Shown: positions 2,613 to 32,328 of the stretch, piece after piece | Numbering within the stretch: position 1 is the stretch's first letter | How the letters are laid out: each line of letters opens with the position of its first letter | Made by a program: the position numbers and the translations under genes | NCBI RefSeq assembly: GCF_001677475.2 | Contig: NZ_CP015229.1 | Length of the DNA: 64,000 nt | Source of the DNA: Escherichia coli | GTDB taxonomy: Bacteria > Pseudomonadota > Gammaproteobacteria > Enterobacterales > Enterobacteriaceae | Reading direction: 5' to 3' (one strand) | Notes under the pieces: model-generated | What the model was told of the DNA's origin: nothing | The model's database searches: none | Seen by the model: the letters and a program-made list of their open reading frames with translations, nothing else

Positions 2613-3911
2613 ATGCGTAAAATTAAAGGGTTACGTTGGTATATGATCGCACTGGTGACGCTCGGCACCGTGCTTGGTTACCTGACGCGTAACACTGTGG
2701 CGGCAGCTGCGCCAACTCTGATGGAAGAGTTAAACATCTCCACCCAACAGTATTCCTATATCATCGCAGCGTATTCTGCTGCTTATACGGTCATGCAACC
2801 GGTAGCGGGCTATGTACTGGATGTGCTGGGTACGAAAATCGGTTATGCAATGTTTGCTGTACTGTGGGCCGTGTTCTGTGGTGCAACCGCGCTGGCAGGT
2901 AGCTGGGGCGGCTTGGCTGTTGCTCGTGGTGCGGTCGGTGCCGCGGAAGCAGCGATGATCCCGGCGGGTCTGAAAGCCAGCTCCGAATGGTTCCCGGCGA
3001 AAGAGCGTTCCATCGCAGTAGGCTACTTTAACGTAGGTTCTTCGATTGGTGCGATGATTGCGCCGCCGCTGGTGGTATGGGCAATCGTGATGCACAGCTG
3101 GCAGATGGCATTTATCATCTCCGGTGCATTGAGCTTTATCTGGGCGATGGCATGGCTGATTTTCTATAAACATCCGCGCGACCAGAAGCATCTGACCGAT
3201 GAAGAACGCGACTATATTATTAATGGTCAGGAAGCCCAGCACCAGGTGAGTACGGCGAAGAAAATGTCCGTTGGTCAGATCCTGCGTAACCGTCAGTTCT
3301 GGGGTATCGCGCTGCCGCGTTTCCTGGCTGAACCGGCGTGGGGGACTTTCAACGCGTGGATCCCGCTGTTCATGTTTAAAGTTTACGGCTTTAACCTGAA
3401 AGAGATCGCGATGTTCGCCTGGATGCCGATGCTGTTTGCTGACCTCGGTTGTATCCTCGGTGGTTACCTGCCGCCGCTGTTCCAGCGTTGGTTTGGCGTA
3501 AACCTGATCGTCTCTCGTAAGATGGTCGTAACGCTGGGTGCGGTGCTGATGATTGGCCCAGGTATGATCGGTCTGTTCACCAACCCATATGTAGCGATTA
3601 TGCTGCTGTGTATTGGTGGTTTTGCTCACCAGGCACTGTCTGGCGCACTGATTACGCTCTCTTCTGACGTGTTCGGTCGTAATGAAGTCGCAACGGCAAA
3701 CGGTCTGACCGGGATGTCCGCATGGCTGGCAAGTACGCTGTTTGCGCTGGTTGTTGGTGCTCTGGCTGACACCATCGGCTTCAGCCCGCTGTTCGCAGTG
3801 CTGGCAGTGTTCGACCTGTTAGGCGCGCTGGTTATCTGGACGGTATTGCAGAACAAACCGGCGATTGAGGTGGCGCAGGAAACACATAACGATCCCGCCC
3901 CGCAACATTAA
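2613..3911 (+). CDS. exuT: Hexuronate transporter (MFS), 432 aa
   Basis: ORF 2493..3911; start at MRKIKGLRWYMIALVTLG (ATG 2613); multi-span membrane protein matching ExuT. Confidence 0.92.
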   Translation: MRKIKGLRWYMIALVTLGTVLGYLTRNTVAAAAPTLMEELNISTQQYSYIIAAYSAAYTVMQPVAGYVLDVLGTKIGYAMFAVLWAVFCGATALAGSWGGLAVARGAVGAAEAAMIPAGLKASSEWFPAKERSIAVGYFNVGSSIGAMIAPPLVVWAIVMHSWQMAFIISGALSFIWAMAWLIFYKHPRDQKHLTDEERDYIINGQEAQHQVSTAKKMSVGQILRNRQFWGIALPRFLAEPAWGTFNAWIPLFMFKVYGFNLKEIAMFAWMPMLFADLGCILGGYLPPLFQRWFGVNLIVSRKMVVTLGAVLMIGPGMIGLFTNPYVAIMLLCIGGFAHQALSGALITLSSDVFGRNEVATANGLTGMSAWLASTLFALVVGALADTIGFSPLFAVLAVFDLLGALVIWTVLQNKPAIEVAQETHNDPAPQH

Positions 3912-3934
3912 CGCTTAGCGTGAGTTTTAATGTC

Positions 3935-3965
3935 GAAGCCGCCTGTTCAGGCGGCTTCGTTGTTT
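3935..3965 (+). terminator. Intrinsic terminator after exuT (GC hairpin gaagccgcc/ggcggcttc then T-rich tract)
   Basis: Perfect 9 bp stem with 6 nt loop followed by gttgttt. Confidence 0.7.
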
Positions 3966-3988
3966 ATGCGTTTGCCCGGCCTATAGGG

Positions 3989-5074
3989 TTAATTGATGGT
4001 TGGTAGAGATGGAGTAAAAATTACCGATAGTTTCCCCATGTAATACCCGGCCTGTTTATCCATCACGCTAAATTTATCGACCGCCAGGGTTAATGGCGTC
4101 GGCACACACATGACAGCGTAACGAATTCCTGGCAGCACAACCGGACGAACGCGCTTCAGGTTGATGCTGTTCCAGACCATATTTTCATTGTTGCGAACAT
4201 CAATTTGCCCGCCCGTTTCCGGGTTATACATTTTTACCCGATAATCAATGCGTTCTGAGGCATCTGTCGATGTTCCTCCCTGACGATAGATCGAGAAGTC
4301 GCCATCTCTTCGTCCGGCAGCCGGGCGACCTTCATCTTTAAGCTGGATTTCATAACTGATAGCGTTGCCGTTAAAACCATCGTACAGGCACATATCCAGC
4401 GTGGTCAGATCCTGAGCATAGTTACTGCCATTGACGCTCCCCGTCGGGTGTAGATCCAACTGTACCCGTGGCGTGGCGTGGGCAAACTCAGGAAAGAAGA
4501 TATCGATATGGTTGGGATCGAGCGTATTAAGCGTGATATCCGCAACATAATCTGTTCCAGGAGTGGAAAAACGTAATTTAGCAGAACCTTCCCAGACGCC
4601 GCCGATTGGTAATTTTTTCATTTCGGCTTGTTCAAGATACAGGGTTACCGGCTTTGCAGTGGCAAGATGTTGAACATTATCATTACCCTTGCAGTAATAG
4701 CCATTACCATCAGTCAAATTCAGTTGCTTGCTCCATCCCTTGCATGGCCCTTCATCCCAGACTTCTGCGTTCATATAGCCCGTCAGTTTCACAGGCCAAC
4801 GCATACCGCTGCGCTTTTCAGTCAAGTAAATCTGCACTTTTGTCGTGTTTCCAGATGATGTGCAGGTCTGCTGCATATCAGAGAAGTTGCACTGATACCA
4901 TGCCCATGTAGTGTTGTAGTTGTACGCCGGTGGGGCTTCTTTGTTCCAGAAATAGTAATTCGCCCTCCCCGTCGCCAAATCGTAAGTTACATCCGCCGTA
5001 ACATTTTGGGCTGCCTGAACACCCGCAACCGAGCCCCAAAAGCAAAATAGTATGGCAATCAATCGCTTTCTCAT
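3989..5074 (-). CDS. Fimbrial tip/minor adhesin, class 5 (CfaE/CooD-like), 361 aa with signal peptide
   Basis: Size and motifs (KLPIGGVW, DLHPTG, DMCLYDGF, GYYMGKLSVIFTPS) resemble CfaE/CooD as recalled; last gene of a chaperone-pilin-usher-adhesin operon. Confidence 0.8.
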   Translation of the reverse strand: MRKRLIAILFCFWGSVAGVQAAQNVTADVTYDLATGRANYYFWNKEAPPAYNYNTTWAWYQCNFSDMQQTCTSSGNTTKVQIYLTEKRSGMRWPVKLTGYMNAEVWDEGPCKGWSKQLNLTDGNGYYCKGNDNVQHLATAKPVTLYLEQAEMKKLPIGGVWEGSAKLRFSTPGTDYVADITLNTLDPNHIDIFFPEFAHATPRVQLDLHPTGSVNGSNYAQDLTTLDMCLYDGFNGNAISYEIQLKDEGRPAAGRRDGDFSIYRQGGTSTDASERIDYRVKMYNPETGGQIDVRNNENMVWNSINLKRVRPVVLPGIRYAVMCVPTPLTLAVDKFSVMDKQAGYYMGKLSVIFTPSLPTIN

Positions 5075-7755
5075 GGTGCAACCTCCCTTTGCGCCGTTTG
5101 CACACTTTCGCGTAATTTAGGCTGTTTTAACTGCGCCTGAACCTGAATCGACTCTGGCAATTGCGAATAACTCACGACGCTACAAGTCACATCGCCGCTG
5201 TAACGAATGCTGGCGCGTTTCTTCACAACAGTCAGCGGACATTTAAGGAATTCGTGTCCGGAAAGCAGATACAGTTCTTTATCATTGCCGCTAATTTCCA
5301 GCGTAAATCCGCCATCTTCAGCCACCAATAACATGGTGCTGTTCAGACCAATCAGCGGGAATTTCTCTACTGATGCTGGCAATAACAAGCGACCAATATA
5401 GTTGTAGTTAAAGCTGGCAGTGACTTCGCGATAACGTAACTTACCGGGCAGCAACATTAATTCCCGGTTTCCCGCGCCATTGATAATATTGGTTGTTCCC
5501 TGCTGATTGCCCTGGTTGCTGTCCCTGACGTCAACAAAGCCCGACTGGAATCCAGCATAGGGGAACAACACACTGTCACTTTGACCAAGTTGCAGAGTTC
5601 TGCTGCCCGCAACCCGAGCTTCGAATTGCAGATCCTGGCTCTCTTCATCCTGTTCAGTAAATCCTTTTACATCGACTAATACAGCGCCGAGCAGATCATC
5701 TGTTCCACTGGCTCCCAGATTAATTCCGTAACGACTCACCGCCAGTGTGGAACTGTAAGTCCCTGTAAAGGCAGAAAGATGATCATGGTTCTTGCGATCG
5801 TAACTGTCTGATACGGTTCCGTTGAGATTACCGTACTGCCCTTCCCAACGACCATTAACCGCACTGTTTATGGTATCGGTGTTCAGGCCACCGACGGTTA
5901 CGCCAAGTTCTTTATGGCTGAATGAATCATTATAAAAGGTATGCGATAACTGCCATGAAGTTTGGTCGCCATCCTGATCGCTATAGCGATAGTCAGTCGA
6001 AACATTGGTTGAGTGACTGTTATTATTGCTGTCCATCGTTGGTGTATCAGATAACGAAAACGATAAGTACAATCCGTTGTCGTCGTTATCTCCGCCGTTG
6101 TCGTTACGATGGAAAACCCCGACAGAAGTGCTCAAAATCCAGTCACGCATTATAAAAGCGCGAGACGCGCTAAGCTGTACGGTTTCAGAAATACTTTGCG
6201 CAGAAGTCTGGCGAAGATAGTTATTTTCAAAACTCTGCTGTTTGTCCCAGCGTAAGCTGTCGTCGGTGTTATTTTGCGTGCGGGTATAACCCAGCATCAG
6301 GTTCCAGCCGATAAGATTCTGTGAAATCGTAGCGGATATGCTTTCATAACAGCTTAAGGCGTTGTAGCTATCTCTGCTGTCGGTTGTACAAGCATCTCCG
6401 TCGGAGTTGGTACGATAAAAGCCCAGCGTCGGCCATCCCGAATTACTCCAGTTAACCTGCTGCATATCACCTTTGCCGCCATCGTCATTGCGGAACAGGC
6501 TGGCACCTATGGCAAGATTCCCCGCCCCGCCTAAATCCGCCGTCCAGTTATTACCTAACTCGAAAGCATTCACATCATCGGCATTCGCCAGCCCTGCGTA
6601 GAGCTCATATTGTGGATGTAACGGCAGGCGAAAACCCAGTTGATAAGCTGAACTTTCGTCATCGGCAGCCTGGGAGGTGGTTTTACCGGCCTGTAAGAAC
6701 CACTGCGCATTTCCGTCCGTCAGCCCCCCTGTTTTGGTAAAAGGGACAAGTTCAGTGCGGGTGAGTTGGTTGTTCTCATAAACTTTTAACGCCACGCTGT
6801 AGCTGCCTGGCGGAAAGGAACCAGTATCAATAAATTGCGAACCACTATTGAGATAAAACGATCCCAGAAGTTGTTCATTACGATAAGCGTCAACACGAGA
6901 ATTGCGCGAAAGCAGGACCATTACTGGCGTTCCTTGCTGACTCTGCGCCTGGTTTAAATAACTGAGTGTTGACCCGATACGCATTCCATCGATTGCACCG
7001 AGTGGCAGAAAGTTAAAAGTAAAATTCCCGCCTTGTGCATTAAATAGCGTGCGGTTGTCCATTCGCCCCGCCTGCACATAATAACGACGTAAAAAATCAT
7101 AACGATAATAGAGATCGCTGACATCAGCATTATTATCGCTGACATCTTCTGCCTCATAGCCATTGAAATTCCAGTGCCCGCCAATATAACTATTCTCTGT
7201 GACACCCAGCGCACCATTGCCCTGAATGGAGAACGATTGGTAATCATCCTGCACCAGCACGTTAATATCCTGCTGATGAATAAATGCATTAATCGCGTTT
7301 CTGTCTGGATTTAAATATAGCGATTTTGAATTTAACGAGGAACTCCATTGGGGATTCAGAAAGAGGGTGGCGGAACTCTCTTCATCATTAAAAATAATGT
7401 CAACAGAATCGGTATTGAGAAAGCCACATCCTGAATCGGTCTGCGCAAAACCACAAGCCAGTTCACCATGACGCACCAGTGGTTGTGCCAGTCTCGCTTT
7501 TACGGCTTGAGTGATTTTTTGGTCTTTGGTATCCAGCTCCAGCTTATTATATAAACTTGCTGAATCCAGAAATGTTACGGCATCAAGATTAACCATTGCA
7601 TAATATTTACCGAGACTTTTCCCGGCATAATAGACTTCAATATACTCCTGCTGTCCCTGTGCAATAACCTCAAACCCAGCGGGAATTTTAGTTAATGCTG
7701 CCTTTGCCGGGCTGAGACTCGCCAGGATCAAAAGAGCCAGTAATTTTTTATCCAT
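5071..7755 (-). CDS. Fimbrial outer-membrane usher (CooC/CfaC-like), about 894 aa
   Basis: ORF 5071..7809 (912 aa); start preferred at MDKKLLALLILASLSPAKA (signal peptide, ATG at 7755, RBS agggt); large beta-barrel-type protein between pilin and adhesin genes. Confidence 0.85.
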   Translation of the reverse strand: MDKKLLALLILASLSPAKAALTKIPAGFEVIAQGQQEYIEVYYAGKSLGKYYAMVNLDAVTFLDSASLYNKLELDTKDQKITQAVKARLAQPLVRHGELACGFAQTDSGCGFLNTDSVDIIFNDEESSATLFLNPQWSSSLNSKSLYLNPDRNAINAFIHQQDINVLVQDDYQSFSIQGNGALGVTENSYIGGHWNFNGYEAEDVSDNNADVSDLYYRYDFLRRYYVQAGRMDNRTLFNAQGGNFTFNFLPLGAIDGMRIGSTLSYLNQAQSQQGTPVMVLLSRNSRVDAYRNEQLLGSFYLNSGSQFIDTGSFPPGSYSVALKVYENNQLTRTELVPFTKTGGLTDGNAQWFLQAGKTTSQAADDESSAYQLGFRLPLHPQYELYAGLANADDVNAFELGNNWTADLGGAGNLAIGASLFRNDDGGKGDMQQVNWSNSGWPTLGFYRTNSDGDACTTDSRDSYNALSCYESISATISQNLIGWNLMLGYTRTQNNTDDSLRWDKQQSFENNYLRQTSAQSISETVQLSASRAFIMRDWILSTSVGVFHRNDNGGDNDDNGLYLSFSLSDTPTMDSNNNSHSTNVSTDYRYSDQDGDQTSWQLSHTFYNDSFSHKELGVTVGGLNTDTINSAVNGRWEGQYGNLNGTVSDSYDRKNHDHLSAFTGTYSSTLAVSRYGINLGASGTDDLLGAVLVDVKGFTEQDEESQDLQFEARVAGSRTLQLGQSDSVLFPYAGFQSGFVDVRDSNQGNQQGTTNIINGAGNRELMLLPGKLRYREVTASFNYNYIGRLLLPASVEKFPLIGLNSTMLLVAEDGGFTLEISGNDKELYLLSGHEFLKCPLTVVKKRASIRYSGDVTCSVVSYSQLPESIQVQAQLKQPKLRESVQTAQREVAP

Positions 7756-7780
7756 GGCAACCCTGTAATCCATAACAACG

Positions 7781-7820
7781 ACTAAAATAGTTAAAATAAG
7801 GGAGGACAAGCCCCCCCTTT
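7781..7820 (-). terminator. Intra-operon hairpin (GGGGGG/CCUCCC stem, U-rich tail) between the pilin and usher genes; possible attenuator
   Basis: Minus-strand transcript ggggggg-cttgtc-ctccctt followed by auuuuaacuauuuu; position matches pilin/usher attenuators seen in other chaperone-usher operons. Confidence 0.4.
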
Positions 7821-7846
7821 ATTACGTATTAATTCTGTTATCCGGA

Positions 7847-8347
7847 TTAGATATCCTGGGACAGATAGATGCTTACCACACCACGGTAAATACCGGTTTC
7901 CAGTACACCTTTGGTGGTCTGAGCAAACATCAGGTTTTTAGCCAAAGAACCGTTGGTTAAAGCATCGGAAGCAAAAATTTTGGTTGCTTCGAAAGTGGTA
8001 GCGGCATCAGACTTGATTTCAGTACCACCCCAGGTCACAGTCAGCGGAACAGTTTTGCTGCCGTCCAGGTTATGAACCAGTTGCGCAGGGGAAACCAACT
8101 GCATTTTAATGTCTTTAGTAACATCGTTAGACCAAATTTTAGTCATCAACTGATAAGATTGCAGACCCTGACCCGGCAGATATTGCATTTCAACTGCTTT
8201 CGGCAGTGCGCTGTTATCGGTTTGCGTCATATCCAGGGCGGCATCAACGTTAGCTGTTACAGTAATATCTTTTTGTACTGCTAACGCGGAGCCTGCTACA
8301 GAGAATAACGCTGCTACCAGAAGAGATTTTGCAAATGCCTTTTTCAT
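7847..8347 (-). CDS. Major fimbrial subunit, class 5 (CooA/CfaB-like pilin), 166 aa with signal peptide
   Basis: ITVTANVDAALDMTQTDNSALP and C-terminal YRGVVSIYLSQ resemble CooA ISVTASVDPTVDLLQSDGSALP ... YQGLVSIIL as recalled. Confidence 0.85.
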   Translation of the reverse strand: MKKAFAKSLLVAALFSVAGSALAVQKDITVTANVDAALDMTQTDNSALPKAVEMQYLPGQGLQSYQLMTKIWSNDVTKDIKMQLVSPAQLVHNLDGSKTVPLTVTWGGTEIKSDAATTFEATKIFASDALTNGSLAKNLMFAQTTKGVLETGIYRGVVSIYLSQDI

Positions 8348-8376
8348 TACTATTCCTTCGTTTATGACAATGATAA

Positions 8377-9093
8377 TTAATGGATCGCCAGCTCAAACTC
8401 GCCATTATCCTTAGTGATCCAGTTATTATATTTGACAACGATCTTGTCGTAGCCAGATATGCTTTCAAGATTTATTTCCTGACCAGGGAAGATATTTTTA
8501 TTTACGGTCTGCATCTTACAATTATCTTTGCTATTATTTTTGCAATAAGCGATCGTTAAAAGTTTTAAACGTTGATTCCCTGCATTAAATAATTTTTTGG
8601 CAGGATTTACTTCTAACTTAGCAATAGGTTGTTGGGGTGGAACACTAACAACAATCCCCCAAATCAAGTTAACTGTTAACTGCATAGAGAGATCTTTTTT
8701 ATCTGTGGCAACGTCATCAATACTGGGAACTGCTTCAAATTTAACGCGGTAATTTTTCTCTTTTTGCTCTGGTTCCATTGCGACAAAGCGCACGGTTTTG
8801 CTGCTACCGGCTGGTAAGGCGAATTTGGGTGGCATAACGACCAGATGATTTGCATCACCGGATTTAATCTCAACTTCATTTTCCTGAGGCGTCGATGGAT
8901 TATCTATACGGAATACTGTCGCCTTGATATACTGAACTTCATTACTTTTAGATATTACACGAACGTTGCCTTCACCCTGACTATTAATAGAAACAGCCAT
9001 AGGATAAACAGTCATATTTGACTGTGCAAAAAAAGGAGCGAACACGAATAAAAGCGGCGTAAGCCGTGATAAGAGTTTAATTTTCGCCACCAT
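8377..9093 (-). CDS. Periplasmic fimbrial chaperone, class 5 (CooB/CfaA-like), 238 aa
   Basis: IYPMAVS, KSNEVQYIKATV and YRVKFEAV resemble CooB IYPISKD, KSKEIQYIKIYT and YRVYFEAV as recalled; first gene of the operon. Confidence 0.85.
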   Translation of the reverse strand: MVAKIKLLSRLTPLLFVFAPFFAQSNMTVYPMAVSINSQGEGNVRVISKSNEVQYIKATVFRIDNPSTPQENEVEIKSGDANHLVVMPPKFALPAGSSKTVRFVAMEPEQKEKNYRVKFEAVPSIDDVATDKKDLSMQLTVNLIWGIVVSVPPQQPIAKLEVNPAKKLFNAGNQRLKLLTIAYCKNNSKDNCKMQTVNKNIFPGQEINLESISGYDKIVVKYNNWITKDNGEFELAIH

Positions 9094-9342
9094 ATAGAAT
9101 TGATCTTACAAAATTGTTTCAAAAAAGTTAGTGCATTAGAAATGTAGATTTATTGTAAGTCAATATAAAAAATCATTTTTAGTTAATATTAATTTAAAAA
9201 GCGAAAAATTAAGTTACTGAAACATAGTAATTTTCACAATAGCGACGCTTAATTTTTAGGAATTTATAAATATTCACAATGTTAATTAAATACATTATTT
9301 CAATCACCATATTTATATATGAACAATGGCATACCCATAAAT
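9094..9342 (-). promoter_or_regulatory. Strongly AT-rich leader/promoter region of the fimbrial operon
   Basis: About 250 bp of very low GC with A/T tracts immediately upstream of the chaperone start; exact promoter elements not assigned. Confidence 0.4.
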
Positions 9343-9362
9343 AAAGTGGTATGATAACTTTG
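9343..9362. promoter_or_regulatory. Candidate ExuR operator upstream of exuR (aaagtggtatgataactttg)
   Basis: Matches the 2364..2383 motif at about 16 of 20 positions; sits 27 bp upstream of the exuR start. Confidence 0.45.
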
Positions 9363-9388
9363 TCCGCATTCCATTCCGGGAGACGCAT

Positions 9389-10165
9389 ATGGAAATCTCT
9401 GAACCACGCCGTTTGTACCAACAACTTGCTGCTGACCTGAAAGAGCGCATTGAGCAGGGCGTCTATCTGGTGGGTGATAAACTGCCCGCCGAACGTTTTA
9501 TTGCCGATGAAAAAAACGTCAGCCGAACGGTAGTTCGTGAAGCCATCATCATGCTGGAAGTTGAAGGCTATGTGGAGGTGCGTAAAGGTTCAGGTATTCA
9601 CGTGGTTTCCAACCAGCCGCGCCATCAGCAGGCGGCTGACGATAATATGGAATTTGCCAATTACGGCCCGTTTGAACTGTTACAGGCTCGCCAGCTTATC
9701 GAGAGCAATATTGCCGAGTTTGCCGCAACCCAGGTGACCAAGCAGGACATCATGAAATTGATGGCCATCCAGGAGCAGGCTCGCGGCGAACAATGCTTCC
9801 GCGATTCCGAGTGGGATTTGCAGTTCCACATTCAGGTAGCCCTGGCGACGCAGAACTCCGCCCTGGCGGCTATCGTTGAAAAAATGTGGACCCAACGTAG
9901 CCATAACCCGTACTGGAAAAAACTACACGAACACATTGATGCCCGTACTGTCGATAACTGGTGCGATGACCACGATCAGATCCTCAAGGCGTTAATTCGC
10001 AAAGATCCTCATGCTGCTAAGCTGGCAATGTGGCAGCATCTGGAAAACACCAAAATCATGTTATTTAACGAAACCAGCGACGATTTCGAGTTCAATGCCG
10101 ACCGCTATCTGTTCGCAGAAAACCCGGTAGTGCATCTCGATACGGCCACCAGCGGCAGCAAATGA
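9389..10165 (+). CDS. exuR: Hexuronate regulon repressor ExuR (GntR/FadR family), 258 aa
   Basis: [37 protein letters not shown]...; length matches ExuR. Confidence 0.93.
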
Positions 10166-29791: not shown

Positions 29792-30105
29792 AACGACCTA
29801 CGTTAATTACCTCATTGACGGCATGAAGTGTATCAAAATGAAATGAACAGGATATGTGCGACCACTCACAAATTAACTTTCAATACTTTCCAGGGTATCG
29901 TTATTACAATTAAATACCTTTAAATATCAACAAGTTAAAGTATAAAAATCAGCATAAAGCCTGATTTTTGTCAAAAAAAATGACGGGGATAACCATATTT
30001 TATGGCGATAACATCATTCGTTATGTGGTTAATACAAAAAAGGGGCTGAGACCATATTTCAAGCAATTACCGGATAATTACCAGGCAAAATTTGAGTTAA
30101 ATTTA

Positions 30106-30324
30106 ATGAGCAAGTTCTCAAATTTTATTATAAATAAACCATTTTCAGCGATAAATAATGCGGCACGTCACATTTTTTCACGCTATTTGTTGGAGAACAA
30201 ACATTTATTTTATCAATATTTTAAAATTTCGAATACAGATATTGATCATCTCGAACAATTGATTAACGTCAACTTTTTCTCTTCTGACAGGACGTCATTT
30301 TGTGAATGCAATCGTTTTCCATAA
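30106..30324 (+). CDS. tdcR: Small regulator TdcR, 72 aa
   Basis: ORF 29968..30324; start at MSKFSNFIINKPFSAINNAARHIFSRYLLENKHL gives the 72 aa form; divergent from tdcA; start not certain. Confidence 0.65.
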   Translation: MSKFSNFIINKPFSAINNAARHIFSRYLLENKHLFYQYFKISNTDIDHLEQLINVNFFSSDRTSFCECNRFP

Positions 30325-30549
30325 ATTCTTCTCCCCTCACAGGCGACGAATAGCATTTTGTGTTGAGGATCACAAAACGAATAATTGCTGGTCGCTGCGA
30401 TAAGGTCAGACAAAGACAACAAGGGGAATTTTCACAGAGCTTTTGATCGGCGTAGGCCACAGAATGTTGCTTCGTTTACTGTAACGCCGGGTAAATGAGC
30501 GTTTTTTGATAGTGCGAAAGAACCCTGCGAGGAAAATAAGCATCTATTA

Positions 30550-31119
30550 TTGTTTGTCATGATGACAAGGCAGGCATCAATGAAAGGCTTCCCAATTGCA
30601 CATATTTTTCACCCTTCAATCCCGCCAATGCACGCAGTGGTTAACAATCACAATAGAAATATTGATTATTGGACGGTAAAAAGAAAGTTTGCAGAAATTG
30701 TCTCCACCAATGACGTTAATAAAATATACAGTATAAGTAATGAACTGCGGAGAGTATTATCTGCAATTACTGCATTGAATTTCTATCAAGGCGATGTTCC
30801 TTCTGTCATGATCCGAATCCAACCGGAAAATATGAGTCCATTCATCGTAAATATTTCTACAGGAGAACATGACGATTATATCATACAAACATTAGATGTA
30901 GGCACTTTTGCACCTTTTGGCGAACAATGTACTTGCTCAGCCGTCAATCAAAAAGAGCTGGAATGTATTAAGGAGACGATTTCTAAGTATTGTGCAAAAT
31001 TCACCCGAAAAGAAGCCATCTTAACCCCCTCTGCGTACTTTAATAAAACCTGCATTACTTCAGGTTGTTGGCAAATTCTCTATTTTTCACCCGATCATTT
31101 TAATAATGATTTTTATTGA
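30550..31119 (+). CDS. yhaB: Uncharacterised protein YhaB
   Basis: 189 aa ORF in an AT-rich block; start ambiguous (MFVMMTRQ vs MKGF); recognised by position and sequence. Confidence 0.7.
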   Translation: MFVMMTRQASMKGFPIAHIFHPSIPPMHAVVNNHNRNIDYWTVKRKFAEIVSTNDVNKIYSISNELRRVLSAITALNFYQGDVPSVMIRIQPENMSPFIVNISTGEHDDYIIQTLDVGTFAPFGEQCTCSAVNQKELECIKETISKYCAKFTRKEAILTPSAYFNKTCITSGCWQILYFSPDHFNNDFY

Positions 31120-31140
31120 TTATTTATAAAGGATAAAATA

Positions 31141-32328
31141 ATGTTCCCTGTTTCATCAATTGGTAATGATATTAGTAGTGATTTAGTCCGTCGAAAAATA
31201 AATGACCTTCCTGGAAGCCCCATAGAAAATAACCTCGAAGCACTAGCACCAGGTATAGAAAAACTAAAACAGACCTCTATTGAAATGGTCACTTTACTTA
31301 ACGCATTACAACCAGGTGGGAAATGTGTTATCACTGGTGATTTTCAAAAAGAATTAGCGTACTTACAGAATGTAATTCTTTATAATGACTCGTCTCTTCG
31401 TATGGATTTTTTAGGTTATAACGCCCGAATTATCCAACGATCGGACAATACCTGTGCACTTACAATTAATGAACCGTTAAAAAACCAGGAAATATCTACA
31501 GGCAATATCAATGTTAATTGTCCATTAAAATATATTTACAATGAAATCAGGAGGTTAAGCGTAATCTTTAGTTGTGGAACTGGAGATATAGTTGATCTAT
31601 CCTCTCTGGACTTACGTAATGTCGATTTAGATTATTATGATTTCACAGATAAACATATGGCTAATACTATTTTAAATCCTTTTAAATTGGATTCAACAAA
31701 TTTTACTAATGCCAACATGTTTCAGGTTAATTTTGTTAGTTCAACACAAAACGCCACAATCTCCTGGGATTATTTACTAAAAATAACACCTGTTTTAACA
31801 AGCATTAGCGATATGTATTCTGAAGAAAAAATTAAGTTTGTCGAAAGTTGTTTAAATGAGCTTGGAGATATTACCGAAGAACAATTAAAAATTATGAGAT
31901 TTGCAATTATAAAATCTATACCAAGAGCAACTCTTACAGATAAATTAGAAAATGAATTAACAAAAGAAATATATAAAAGCTCATCGAAAATCAACAATTT
32001 CTTGAACAGGATTAAATTACCAGAGATGATAGATTTCTCATCAGAAAAAATACATAATTATATCGACATAATCATTGAAGATTATGAGAACATCAAAGAA
32101 AATGCTTATCTTGTCATTCCCAAAATTAATTATACTATAGATTTAAACATAGAAGACTCTAGCTCAGAAGAGTTACTTTCAGATAATGCCATCGAGAAAG
32201 ACGAAAATTCTCCGGACAATGGTTTTGAGGTCGGGGAATATAACACATATGAAGCATATAACTCAGAGAAGCAATATTTTACCAGAGAGGACTATACGTA
32301 TGATTACGACCTTTTAAATGCAATATAG
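31141..32328 (+). CDS. yhaC: Uncharacterised protein YhaC, 395 aa
   Basis: AT-rich ORF MFPVSSIGNDISSDLVRRKINDLPG...; contains a short pentapeptide-repeat-like stretch. Confidence 0.8.
   Translation: MFPVSSIGNDISSDLVRRKINDLPGSPIENNLEALAPGIEKLKQTSIEMVTLLNALQPGGKCVITGDFQKELAYLQNVILYNDSSLRMDFLGYNARIIQRSDNTCALTINEPLKNQEISTGNINVNCPLKYIYNEIRRLSVIFSCGTGDIVDLSSLDLRNVDLDYYDFTDKHMANTILNPFKLDSTNFTNANMFQVNFVSSTQNATISWDYLLKITPVLTSISDMYSEEKIKFVESCLNELGDITEEQLKIMRFAIIKSIPRATLTDKLENELTKEIYKSSSKINNFLNRIKLPEMIDFSSEKIHNYIDIIIEDYENIKENAYLVIPKINYTIDLNIEDSSSEELLSDNAIEKDENSPDNGFEVGEYNTYEAYNSEKQYFTREDYTYDYDLLNAI

Follow-up and report, generated by a model that had tools for sequence, protein, structure and literature searches.

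How is a chaperone-usher fimbrial operon expressed when the DNA in front of it is extremely rich in A and T and no activator gene lies close by? The question is raised by the 295 bp between a fimbrial chaperone gene and exuR in the 64-kb stretch of Escherichia DNA analysed here (the window), which the original prediction described as the leader of an operon that looks silenced or orphan-regulated, with no Rns-type activator gene nearby. The reading that we favour, with a probability of about 0.65, is that this is a composite divergent region in which the native exuR promoter is joined to the leader of an island, and that the fimbrial operon is functional, expressed at a low or conditional level, bound by H-NS and controlled by chromosomal regulators that are not of the Rns type.

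Anatomy of the divergent intergenic region

The region is the exact gap between the chaperone open reading frame (8377-9093, minus strand) and exuR (9389-10165, plus strand). Its main features are given below.

9094-9388, divergent: the whole gap separating the chaperone gene from exuR; 295 bp, 24.7% G+C
9094-9342, minus strand: leader of the fimbrial operon with its promoter region, AT-rich and part of the island; 249 bp, absent from the empty sites of K-12 and H10407
9326-9355, plus strand: candidate exuR promoter, ATGGCA-18-TATGAT with an upstream TG; a prediction, with the ATGCCA block invariant
9343-9361, plus strand: ExuR operator, the 19-mer AAAGTGGTATGATAACTTT; from K-12 homology, a repeat at uxaC and invariance in 10 alleles
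9389-10165, plus strand: exuR, GntR-family hexuronate repressor; 258 aa, 562 bits against a cutoff of 396

The AT-richness of the region is real and well beyond chance. The G+C content is 24.7% in the gap compared with 50.3% for the whole window, and only 0.11% of all 295-bp windows in the 64 kb are equally AT-rich, with the minimum (22.4%) found in the one beginning at 9067. The gap contains eight runs of A or T, each 4-6 nt in length, and TpA steps were observed to be enriched threefold (0.137 against 0.047 across the window). The low-G+C tract as a whole covers about 1.1 kb, from ~8250 to ~9340; it extends into the chaperone gene, with roughly 34-42% G+C from ~8250 onwards. The A/T tracts of the gap show no AA/TT excess at a spacing of 10-11 bp, where 84% of shuffles gave at least the same power; AA/TT periodicity is a proxy for curvature and not a full curvature model, and by this proxy intrinsic curvature of the leader is not supported.

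The description of the region as a fimbrial leader of about 300 bp that is full of A/T tracts was found to hold for its composition and for the eight tracts but not for its right-hand 46 bp (9343-9388), which are core exuR DNA. What the earlier reading overlooked is the divergent arrangement, in which exuR draws on the same promoter region, and the presence of an ExuR operator in it. Positions 9343-9361 are homologous to the sequence upstream of K-12 exuR and hold a near-palindromic site of the AAAGTGGTAT-GATAACTTT type, which is the form of the operator in the ExuR regulon. A second copy with two mismatches was found at the start of uxaC (2183-2201; 0.01 matches expected by chance) and a related AAAGTTGTATGACAAGTT is located upstream of exuT. 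From these matches we read AAAGTGGTATGATAACTTT as an ExuR operator that would be autoregulatory for exuR, and the 46 bp around it as the native core promoter and 5' UTR of exuR, that is, hexuronate-regulon DNA common to K-12. The predicted exuR promoter would have its -35 element in island DNA, and its extended -10 element (TGnTATGAT) overlaps the operator.

Several other kinds of control element were considered for the region and rejected. A cis-regulatory RNA, a leader peptide or an sRNA was discarded since the Rfam search of the region gave no match at E <= 1, the small open reading frames overlapping it have only 21-71 codons with none judged to be a credible gene, and the 5' UTR of the operon was predicted to form no stable RNA structure (z = -1.1). 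A phase switch of the Pap type, governed by Dam and Lrp, was set aside on reading the sequence by eye, as there is a single GATC (9101-9104) rather than two about 100 bp apart. The inverted repeats in the region are short and imperfect (at most 19 nt, 72-92% complementary) and do not suggest an invertible element.

The fimbrial operon and its island

The genes of the operon and the left flank of the island are as follows. The Tcf and Cbl E-values come from NCBIfam models and the Cfa E-values, for chaperone, pilin and adhesin, from PDB chains.

8377-9093, minus strand: periplasmic chaperone, 238 aa, TcfA/CfaA-like (TcfA 2.5e-40; CfaA 9.4e-33)
7847-8347, minus strand: major pilin, 166 aa, CblA/TcfB/CfaB-like (CblA 1e-36; CfaB 1.7e-22)
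5071-7755, minus strand: outer-membrane usher, 894 aa from the RefSeq-equivalent start, TcfC-like (TcfC 2.7e-165)
3989-5074, minus strand: tip adhesin, 361 aa, CfaE/TcfD-like (TcfD 6e-31; CfaE 6.6e-29)
3934-3959, plus strand: exuT terminator hairpin, left edge of the K-12 homology in the K-12 spacer alignment
2613-3911, plus strand: exuT, hexuronate transporter, left flank of the island; start set by the length of the RefSeq homologue

All four fimbrial genes lie on the minus strand in the order chaperone, major pilin, usher and tip adhesin. By this gene order and the homology of its components, the operon is an alpha-clade (class-5-like) chaperone-usher fimbrial operon, and CS1 CooA in the PDB was matched as well (2.6e-10). 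The best NCBIfam models for the four proteins are TcfA, CblA together with TcfB, TcfC and TcfD, which belong to the Tcf fimbriae of Salmonella Typhi (tcfABCD) and the cable pili of Burkholderia (cblBACD with cblS/T/R), and the proteins score at least as well on these models as on the CFA/I chains. However, every score is below the equivalog cutoff and the four proteins are therefore not orthologues of Tcf or Cbl.

Judged by its site, gene order, DNA homology and RefSeq names, the operon is the one already known as the CS1-like or eafABCD alpha-type fimbriae. The name "CS1-like fimbriae" is used for ECSE_3375-3378 in E. coli SE11 (PMC2608844), and eafABCD, the E. coli alpha-type fimbria of E. 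coli W, was placed between exuT and exuR (PMC3032704). The term "CS1-like" follows the nomenclature of Wurpel 2013. The E. coli W cluster was said to be without a tip adhesin (PMC3032704), whereas the fourth gene in the window clearly matches CfaE/TcfD.

The island is about 5.4 kb long (~3966-9342) and carries no mobility genes. In the alignment with the K-12 spacer, homology ends just past the exuT terminator and restarts at AAAGTGGTAT, position 9343 of the window, and exuT and exuR are adjacent in the empty sites of K-12 and the ETEC strain H10407. The operon was found at the exuT-exuR site in 1902 of 5426 complete E. coli genomes (~35%) with 83-89% identity, and its leader in 1921 of them. 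In every Escherichia lineage examined, the island occupies one and the same site. Relatives of the operon outside Escherichia occupy unrelated sites, such as gyrA-rcsC in Yokenella, and those in Enterobacterales have leaders of 30-34% G+C in loci of 49-55% G+C with no linked regulator.

Known CS1-like/Eaf alleles of E. coli share the site, the four genes, their order and a homologous leader with the window, and differ from it in DNA identity (83-89% across the island, 68-92% in the leader). Compared with typical E. coli alleles, that of the window is divergent and belongs to a non-typical Escherichia lineage. It shares 99% identity with "E. coli" E69 (CP089930.1) from the usher to exuR but only 85% in the tip adhesin, which represents a different allele. 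Variation within the island is greatest in the tip adhesin gene, with 70-96% nucleotide identity between alleles, a pattern typical of a surface adhesin in use. The region is ordinary, and the locus represents one more allele of an accessory fimbrial island that is already known.

None of the four genes is disrupted, either in the window or in the three E. coli alleles with which it was compared, and the ratio dN/dS is 0.05-0.11 at dS values of 0.13-2.2. Usher and pilin transcripts of "Cs1-like fimbriae" have been detected in non-O157 STEC, at higher levels in HUS-associated strains (PMC6033998). The intact genes, the purifying selection and the transcripts seen for its homologue in STEC show that the operon is not in decay, and the term cryptic, taken to mean non-functional, does not apply to it. 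No regulatory study of the operon was found in searchable papers, either on eaf or CS1-like regulation or on tcfA together with H-NS.

Candidate promoters, conserved footprints and probable H-NS binding in the island leader

Our alignment of the leader, in the sense of the operon, comprises ten alleles, namely the window, seven E. coli/Escherichia chromosomes and two further contigs. The candidate elements to which it points are listed below.

9135-9163, minus strand: candidate operon promoter P1, TTGACT-17-TCTAAT; predicted start ~9128, proposed from the conservation pattern only
9211-9239, minus strand: alternative candidate promoter P2, TTGTGA-17-TAACTT; prediction only
9256-9263, minus strand: ATTCCTAA, which reads TTAGGAAT on the plus strand; a footprint unchanged in all ten alleles, with the same sequence as the RcsB half-site (TTAGGAA) in the flhDC box
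9215-9222, minus strand: invariant footprint TTTCAGTA, 41 bp downstream of ATTCCTAA

Invariant positions make up 34% of the island leader compared with 91% of the core exuR part. The invariant runs are ATGCCA (9332-9327), the two footprints (9263-9256 and 9222-9215), TTGAC (9163-9159) and TAAT (9138-9135), and a copy of ATTGTGAA was observed to precede each footprint, at 9280 and 9240. A first BLAST comparison (90-94% identity) had given the impression of an unusually conserved leader. This was rejected, as by region the leader is no better conserved than the chaperone gene and only short blocks are invariant; its divergence amounts to ~0.2-0.7 of the synonymous divergence of that adjoining gene.

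At P1, TTGAC and TAAT are invariant in the ten alleles and the 17-bp spacer between them varies freely. Conserved hexamers with a variable spacer make up a candidate promoter signature, and a start at ~9128 would give a 5' UTR of ~35 nt. The -10 element of P1 (TCTAAT) is without the near-universal A at position 2, and that of P2 keeps T1, A2 and T6 in all alleles. In a sigma-70 PWM scan, P1 scored 8.6 against 8.4 +/- 1.6 for shuffles and no hit exceeded the shuffles. Calling a sigma-70 promoter by PWM alone was therefore abandoned, since the best hits are no better than those in shuffles of AT-rich DNA. Because there is no convincing sigma-70 score and the -10 element of P1 is defective, the operon promoter may possibly be activator-dependent.

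Two other assignments for these elements were rejected. Sigma-E-like promoters such as rpoE P2 and rpoH P3 have the form GAACTT-N16-TCTAAC/TCTGAT, which P1 resembles when it is read as TTGACTT-N16-TCTAAT. The sigma-E -35 element GGAACTT requires the core GAAC (PMC3326320), which is absent in all ten alleles (TTGACTT, with one TTGACAT). Both ATTGTGAA repeats contain a TGTGA half of the kind recognized by CRP but, by eye, their partners match TCACA at only 1-2 of five positions.

As for H-NS, a G+C content of 24.7% is within the range normally bound by this protein, and repression of the leader by H-NS is plausible on its composition. The region has the marks of xenogeneic DNA, being AT-rich (lowest 0.11%) and part of an island that is found in 35% of the genomes and missing from the empty sites of K-12 and H10407. 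Two matches to the Lang H-NS motif were found in it and, like the ~1.1 kb low-G+C tract and the threefold TpA enrichment, they agree with H-NS binding. An H-NS ChIP-seq study of ETEC H10407 has reportedly been published, but the exuT-exuR site of that strain is empty. The general behaviour of AT-rich, acquired fimbrial promoters fits H-NS binding (PMC5554520). For an AT-rich, horizontally acquired control region of alpha-type fimbriae, we infer that H-NS repression with low expression in the laboratory would be the reasonable default.

A useful comparison is provided by the cryptic, H-NS-repressed chaperone-usher operons of K-12 (yad, yeh, yfc, yra, sfm, ybg and ycb), which are said to have been described by Korea et al. 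in 2010. They resemble the present operon in being chromosomal, intact and functional, with an AT-rich leader, little laboratory expression and no dedicated linked activator. They differ from it in their clades (gamma and pi) and in forming part of the K-12 genome, whereas here an alpha-clade accessory island is involved for which H-NS dependence is putative.

In the composite reading that we prefer, the left 249 bp (9094-9342) would be the end of the ~5.4 kb island and would carry the operon promoter or promoters together with a few conserved footprints of regulators. H-NS would bind the very AT-rich leader and the 5' end of the chaperone gene, most likely leading to low and conditional expression of the kind seen for most E. 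coli chaperone-usher operons. Relief from H-NS would then come from regulators encoded by the core genome and not from those of the Rns/CfaD/AggR type.

Candidate regulators and alternative accounts

A more specific proposal is that RcsB, alone or with an auxiliary LuxR-type partner, activates the operon at ATTCCTAA and counteracts H-NS there. In the crystal structure of the flhDC box, RcsB makes contact with the half-site TTAGGAA (PMC5829831), and in the RcsAB box consensus the RcsB side is the half that reads "TCcta" (PMC4325325). In the leader, TTAGGAA/TTCCTAA occurs as a single half-site that is invariant in the ten alleles, and the 8-mer around it is kept even in an allele with only 54% leader identity. 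The homologues in Burkholderia and Schauerella are linked to an RcsB-like response regulator, presumably the CblR-type regulator of cable pili, and their leaders match the RcsAB box at 12 of 14 positions (P < 0.003) and 11 of 14 positions (P = 0.01). Control by RcsB would be what corresponds in enterobacteria to these linked regulators of the Burkholderiales. Against this, the full 14-bp box with its two half-sites, TaAGaatatTCcta, is not significant in the window (best match 10 of 14, P = 0.54), no second half-site is present, and TTCCTAA is missing from the leaders of Yokenella, Edaphovirga and Enterobacillus. Furthermore, the match was found post hoc, by setting a conserved block against remembered motifs. 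We consider activation by RcsB to be rather unlikely.

The same observations can be extended to an evolutionary scheme, which we regard as unlikely. Here the operon would be a cable-pilus/Tcf-type system whose ancestral RcsB-like regulator was replaced by the core Rcs phosphorelay, with RcsB and a partner lifting H-NS at TTAGGAAT (9256-9263). Tcf is described as closer to the Burkholderia Cbl than to other alpha-clade fimbriae, and the tcf promoter was weak under all the conditions tested (PMC5809473). Cbl has cblSTR whereas no cblSTR-like two-component genes adjoin the operon in the window, and the RcsAB-like box of the Burkholderiales leaders is here reduced to a single half-site. If such a takeover did occur, the expression of a widespread adhesin would be tied to envelope or surface sensing.

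It is also conceivable, though quite unlikely in our view, that P1 or P2 is a plain, unsilenced sigma-70 promoter with an UP-like A/T tract which gives modest constitutive expression, and that the AT-richness merely reflects the composition of the donor. The conserved TTGACT with its 17-bp spacer and an A/T-rich tract upstream would suit such a promoter, as would the purifying selection on the genes, but the -10 element of P1 is without the A at position 2, neither P1 nor P2 scores above the shuffles and 24.7% G+C is in the H-NS-bound range. The transcripts in STEC cultures are in its favour (PMC6033998), and the low activity in laboratory media of most chaperone-usher operons of E. coli and Salmonella, tcf included, is against it (PMC5809473).

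The account from which the question arose is that of a class 5 operon, silenced by H-NS, which needs an activator of the Rns/CfaD/CsvR type that is encoded far away or has been lost, so that the operon is orphaned or cryptic. It draws on the alpha clade and the CfaA/B/E homology, on the AT-rich leader, on the defective -10 element of the best promoter candidate and on the known action of CfaD and Rns against H-NS where fimbrial promoters are AT-rich (PMC5554520, PMC9820224). The claim that no AraC-type activator is encoded within 10 kb was borne out, with no AraC-family gene in the whole 64 kb, of which only ~9 kb lies to the left of the region. From uxaC to yhbW, the window follows the gene order of E. 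coli DNA annotated in RefSeq, where there is no AraC-family gene, and the two stretches in which it departs from that order code for a DUF805 protein and for agaBCDI. A tblastn search of the 64 kb with MarA and with Rns, the latter query being 100% identical to the E24377A plasmid gene, found nothing (best E = 0.61). However, rns usually resides on a different plasmid from the CS1 operon that it activates and is "unlinked to any CU system" (PMC9820224), and its absence within 10 kb therefore says little.

Rns-dependent class 5 promoters have a core like TATTTTTTTATC adjoining the -35 element and a second site 70 bp upstream (PMC2579436), and AggR sites have the form W7-TATC at 21-23 bp from the -10 element (PMC6392122). 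One candidate for an Rns core is ATTTTTTATATT (9173-9162), which abuts the TTGACT of P1 and matches at 8 of 12 positions but is without the conserved TATC. Matches of this quality (at least 67%) are fewer in the leader than in dinucleotide shuffles (8 against 15.6 +/- 4.0). Between the two start codons, W7-TATC was found only once (9363-9353), inside the ExuR operator, and a second copy (9078-9068) is located inside the chaperone gene. No W7-TATC was observed to be conserved in position across the ten alleles and none lies 21-23 bp from a -10 element. At the place where a distal Rns site ~70 bp upstream is expected (9232-9243), the sequence matches at 5 of 12 positions by eye, and no site with four mismatches or fewer was found. 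Neither the activator site by the -35 element nor the distal site of Rns/CfaD/AggR promoters is thus present in the leader.

The distribution of such regulators points the same way. DNA resembling rns, cfaD, aggR or csvR was found in 212 of the 5426 complete E. coli genomes, on plasmids only, in a search at the DNA level that reaches down to about 65-70% identity, so that a more distant AraC-family regulator would escape it. Set against the ~1900-1920 carriers of the operon, this number means that at least ~89% of the carriers are without such a regulator. In addition, H10407, the prototype strain for CfaD, does not have the operon. Strains that do carry it include 55989, SE11, W and E24377A, the last of which has Rns as well (PMC2608844). 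By profile score the closest well-studied relative is Tcf, and neither for Tcf nor for Cbl is an activator of the Rns/AraC type known. The ETEC class 5 promoters (CS1 Pcoo, CFA/I, CS17, CS19 and PCFO71), at which Rns or CfaD acts against H-NS, share the alpha clade, the gene order, an AT-rich leader and the lack of a linked activator gene with the present operon. In contrast to them, the leader here has no Rns core or TATC site by the -35 element and no partner site 70 bp upstream, and the present operon is chromosomal rather than plasmid-borne, with most of its carriers being without rns-family genes. Together with the strong purifying selection on the genes and the STEC transcripts (PMC6033998), these findings make dependence on an Rns-type activator very unlikely. 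Nothing suggests that the leader needs such a missing activator, and the view of the operon as orphaned is not supported.

A coupling to hexuronate metabolism, in which ExuR binding or divergent exuR transcription would modulate the fimbriae and tie adhesion to mucus-derived galacturonate and glucuronate, is highly improbable: despite the ExuR operator within the same intergenic region, the exuT-exuR site common to every Escherichia lineage examined and the invariant ATGCCA block at the junction, the operator is ~140-215 bp upstream of the candidate operon starts, relatives in other genera sit at unrelated sites (gyrA-rcsC in Yokenella), and one ancestral insertion followed by homologous recombination accounts for the conserved site.

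The value of the composite reading is mainly corrective and nothing in it would surprise a specialist. A search for the regulator of the operon that is centred on Rns would probably fail, and the conserved footprints and candidate promoters offer concrete targets for mutagenesis. The adhesin operon is known and widespread, and it occurs in about one in three E. coli, among them EAEC, STEC and commensal strains. Its allelic divergence (dS up to ~2), the purifying selection on its genes and its hypervariable tip adhesin suggest a fimbria that is used in nature and whose diversification is driven by the host or by the receptor.

Mosaic composition of the fimbrial island and its source lineage

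The fimbrial island between exuT and exuR is, judged by its sequence identities, a mosaic. When the window was compared with loci L001 and L007, the usher, pilin and chaperone genes together with the leader (5071-9388) were found to share 99% identity with 'E. coli' E69, whereas the tip-adhesin gene (3989-5074) has only 84.7% identity to E69 but 96.1% to E. coli 2020CK-00188. This contrast between the adhesin and the rest of the island therefore points to a recombination breakpoint close to where the usher and adhesin genes meet. Of the island genes, the adhesin was observed to vary most, with 70-96% identity between alleles, despite which its dN/dS is 0.07-0.11. According to the paper on the genome of E. 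coli W (PMC3032704), the eaf cluster lacks a tip adhesin. However, the fourth gene (3989-5074) matches CfaE at 6.6e-29 and TcfD at 6e-31, and its homologues are named 'CfaE/CblD family pilus tip adhesin' in RefSeq, so that the earlier statement looks outdated.

Across the whole window, compared with loci L001, L007 and L010, the core genes are ~93-97% identical to typical E. coli, and the nearest relative is the 4.44 Mb genome labelled E. coli E69, which in the GTDB-based collection represents a species of its own. The window probably derives from an Escherichia lineage that is divergent or cryptic. Escherichia-type copies of the island (~83-90% identity) were also noticed on the short contig SFGN01000125.1 (L009), assigned to a 'Lachnospiraceae' MAG, and on a 426-bp contig (L014) assigned to Bradyrhizobium sp. 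RP6, both unrelated taxa; these are almost certainly binning or assembly contamination of public records.

Variation in the operon and its leader

In the E. coli A5 allele (L005), the leader is 13 bp shorter through a deletion at window positions 9288-9300, upstream of the conserved ATTGTGAATATTTATAAATTCCTAA block, and the stretch aligned to 9288-9300 therefore appears dispensable. Within 9094-9128, no recognisable Shine-Dalgarno sequence precedes the chaperone start codon. AAGA alone is present, 11-14 nt upstream of the start in an A/U-rich 5'UTR, and translation initiation may be weak or dependent on ribosomal protein S1. The operon was also observed to be disrupted in strain ZH49, where an IS3 element lies inside the adhesin gene, and in 2014C-4423, where the match region has no annotated chaperone gene.

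In the cable-pilus-type leaders of Burkholderiales, RcsAB-box-like sequences were found in Burkholderia territorii (L015; TAAGAATTGTCCTA, 12/14, ~199-186 nt upstream of the chaperone start) and in Schauerella (L016; TAAAAAAAATCCTA, 11/14, ~76-63 nt upstream). RcsB-like response-regulator genes lie downstream of both operons, and it is plausible that these near-consensus sites are bound by the linked regulator.

Other putative regulatory features of the window

Two further strongly AT-rich tracts (24.7-31% G+C) are likely to be additional H-NS-type regions:

29811-32090, counterpart of the tdcR-yhaB-yhaC region of E. coli
15345-15497, spacer separating two DUF805 (yhaH/yhaI-like) genes

Furthermore, three mutually related near-palindromic sites of the AAAGTGGTAT-GATAACTTT type are presumably ExuR operators of the hexuronate regulon:

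2183-2201, uxaC promoter
2362-2385, exuT promoter
9343-9361, exuR promoter
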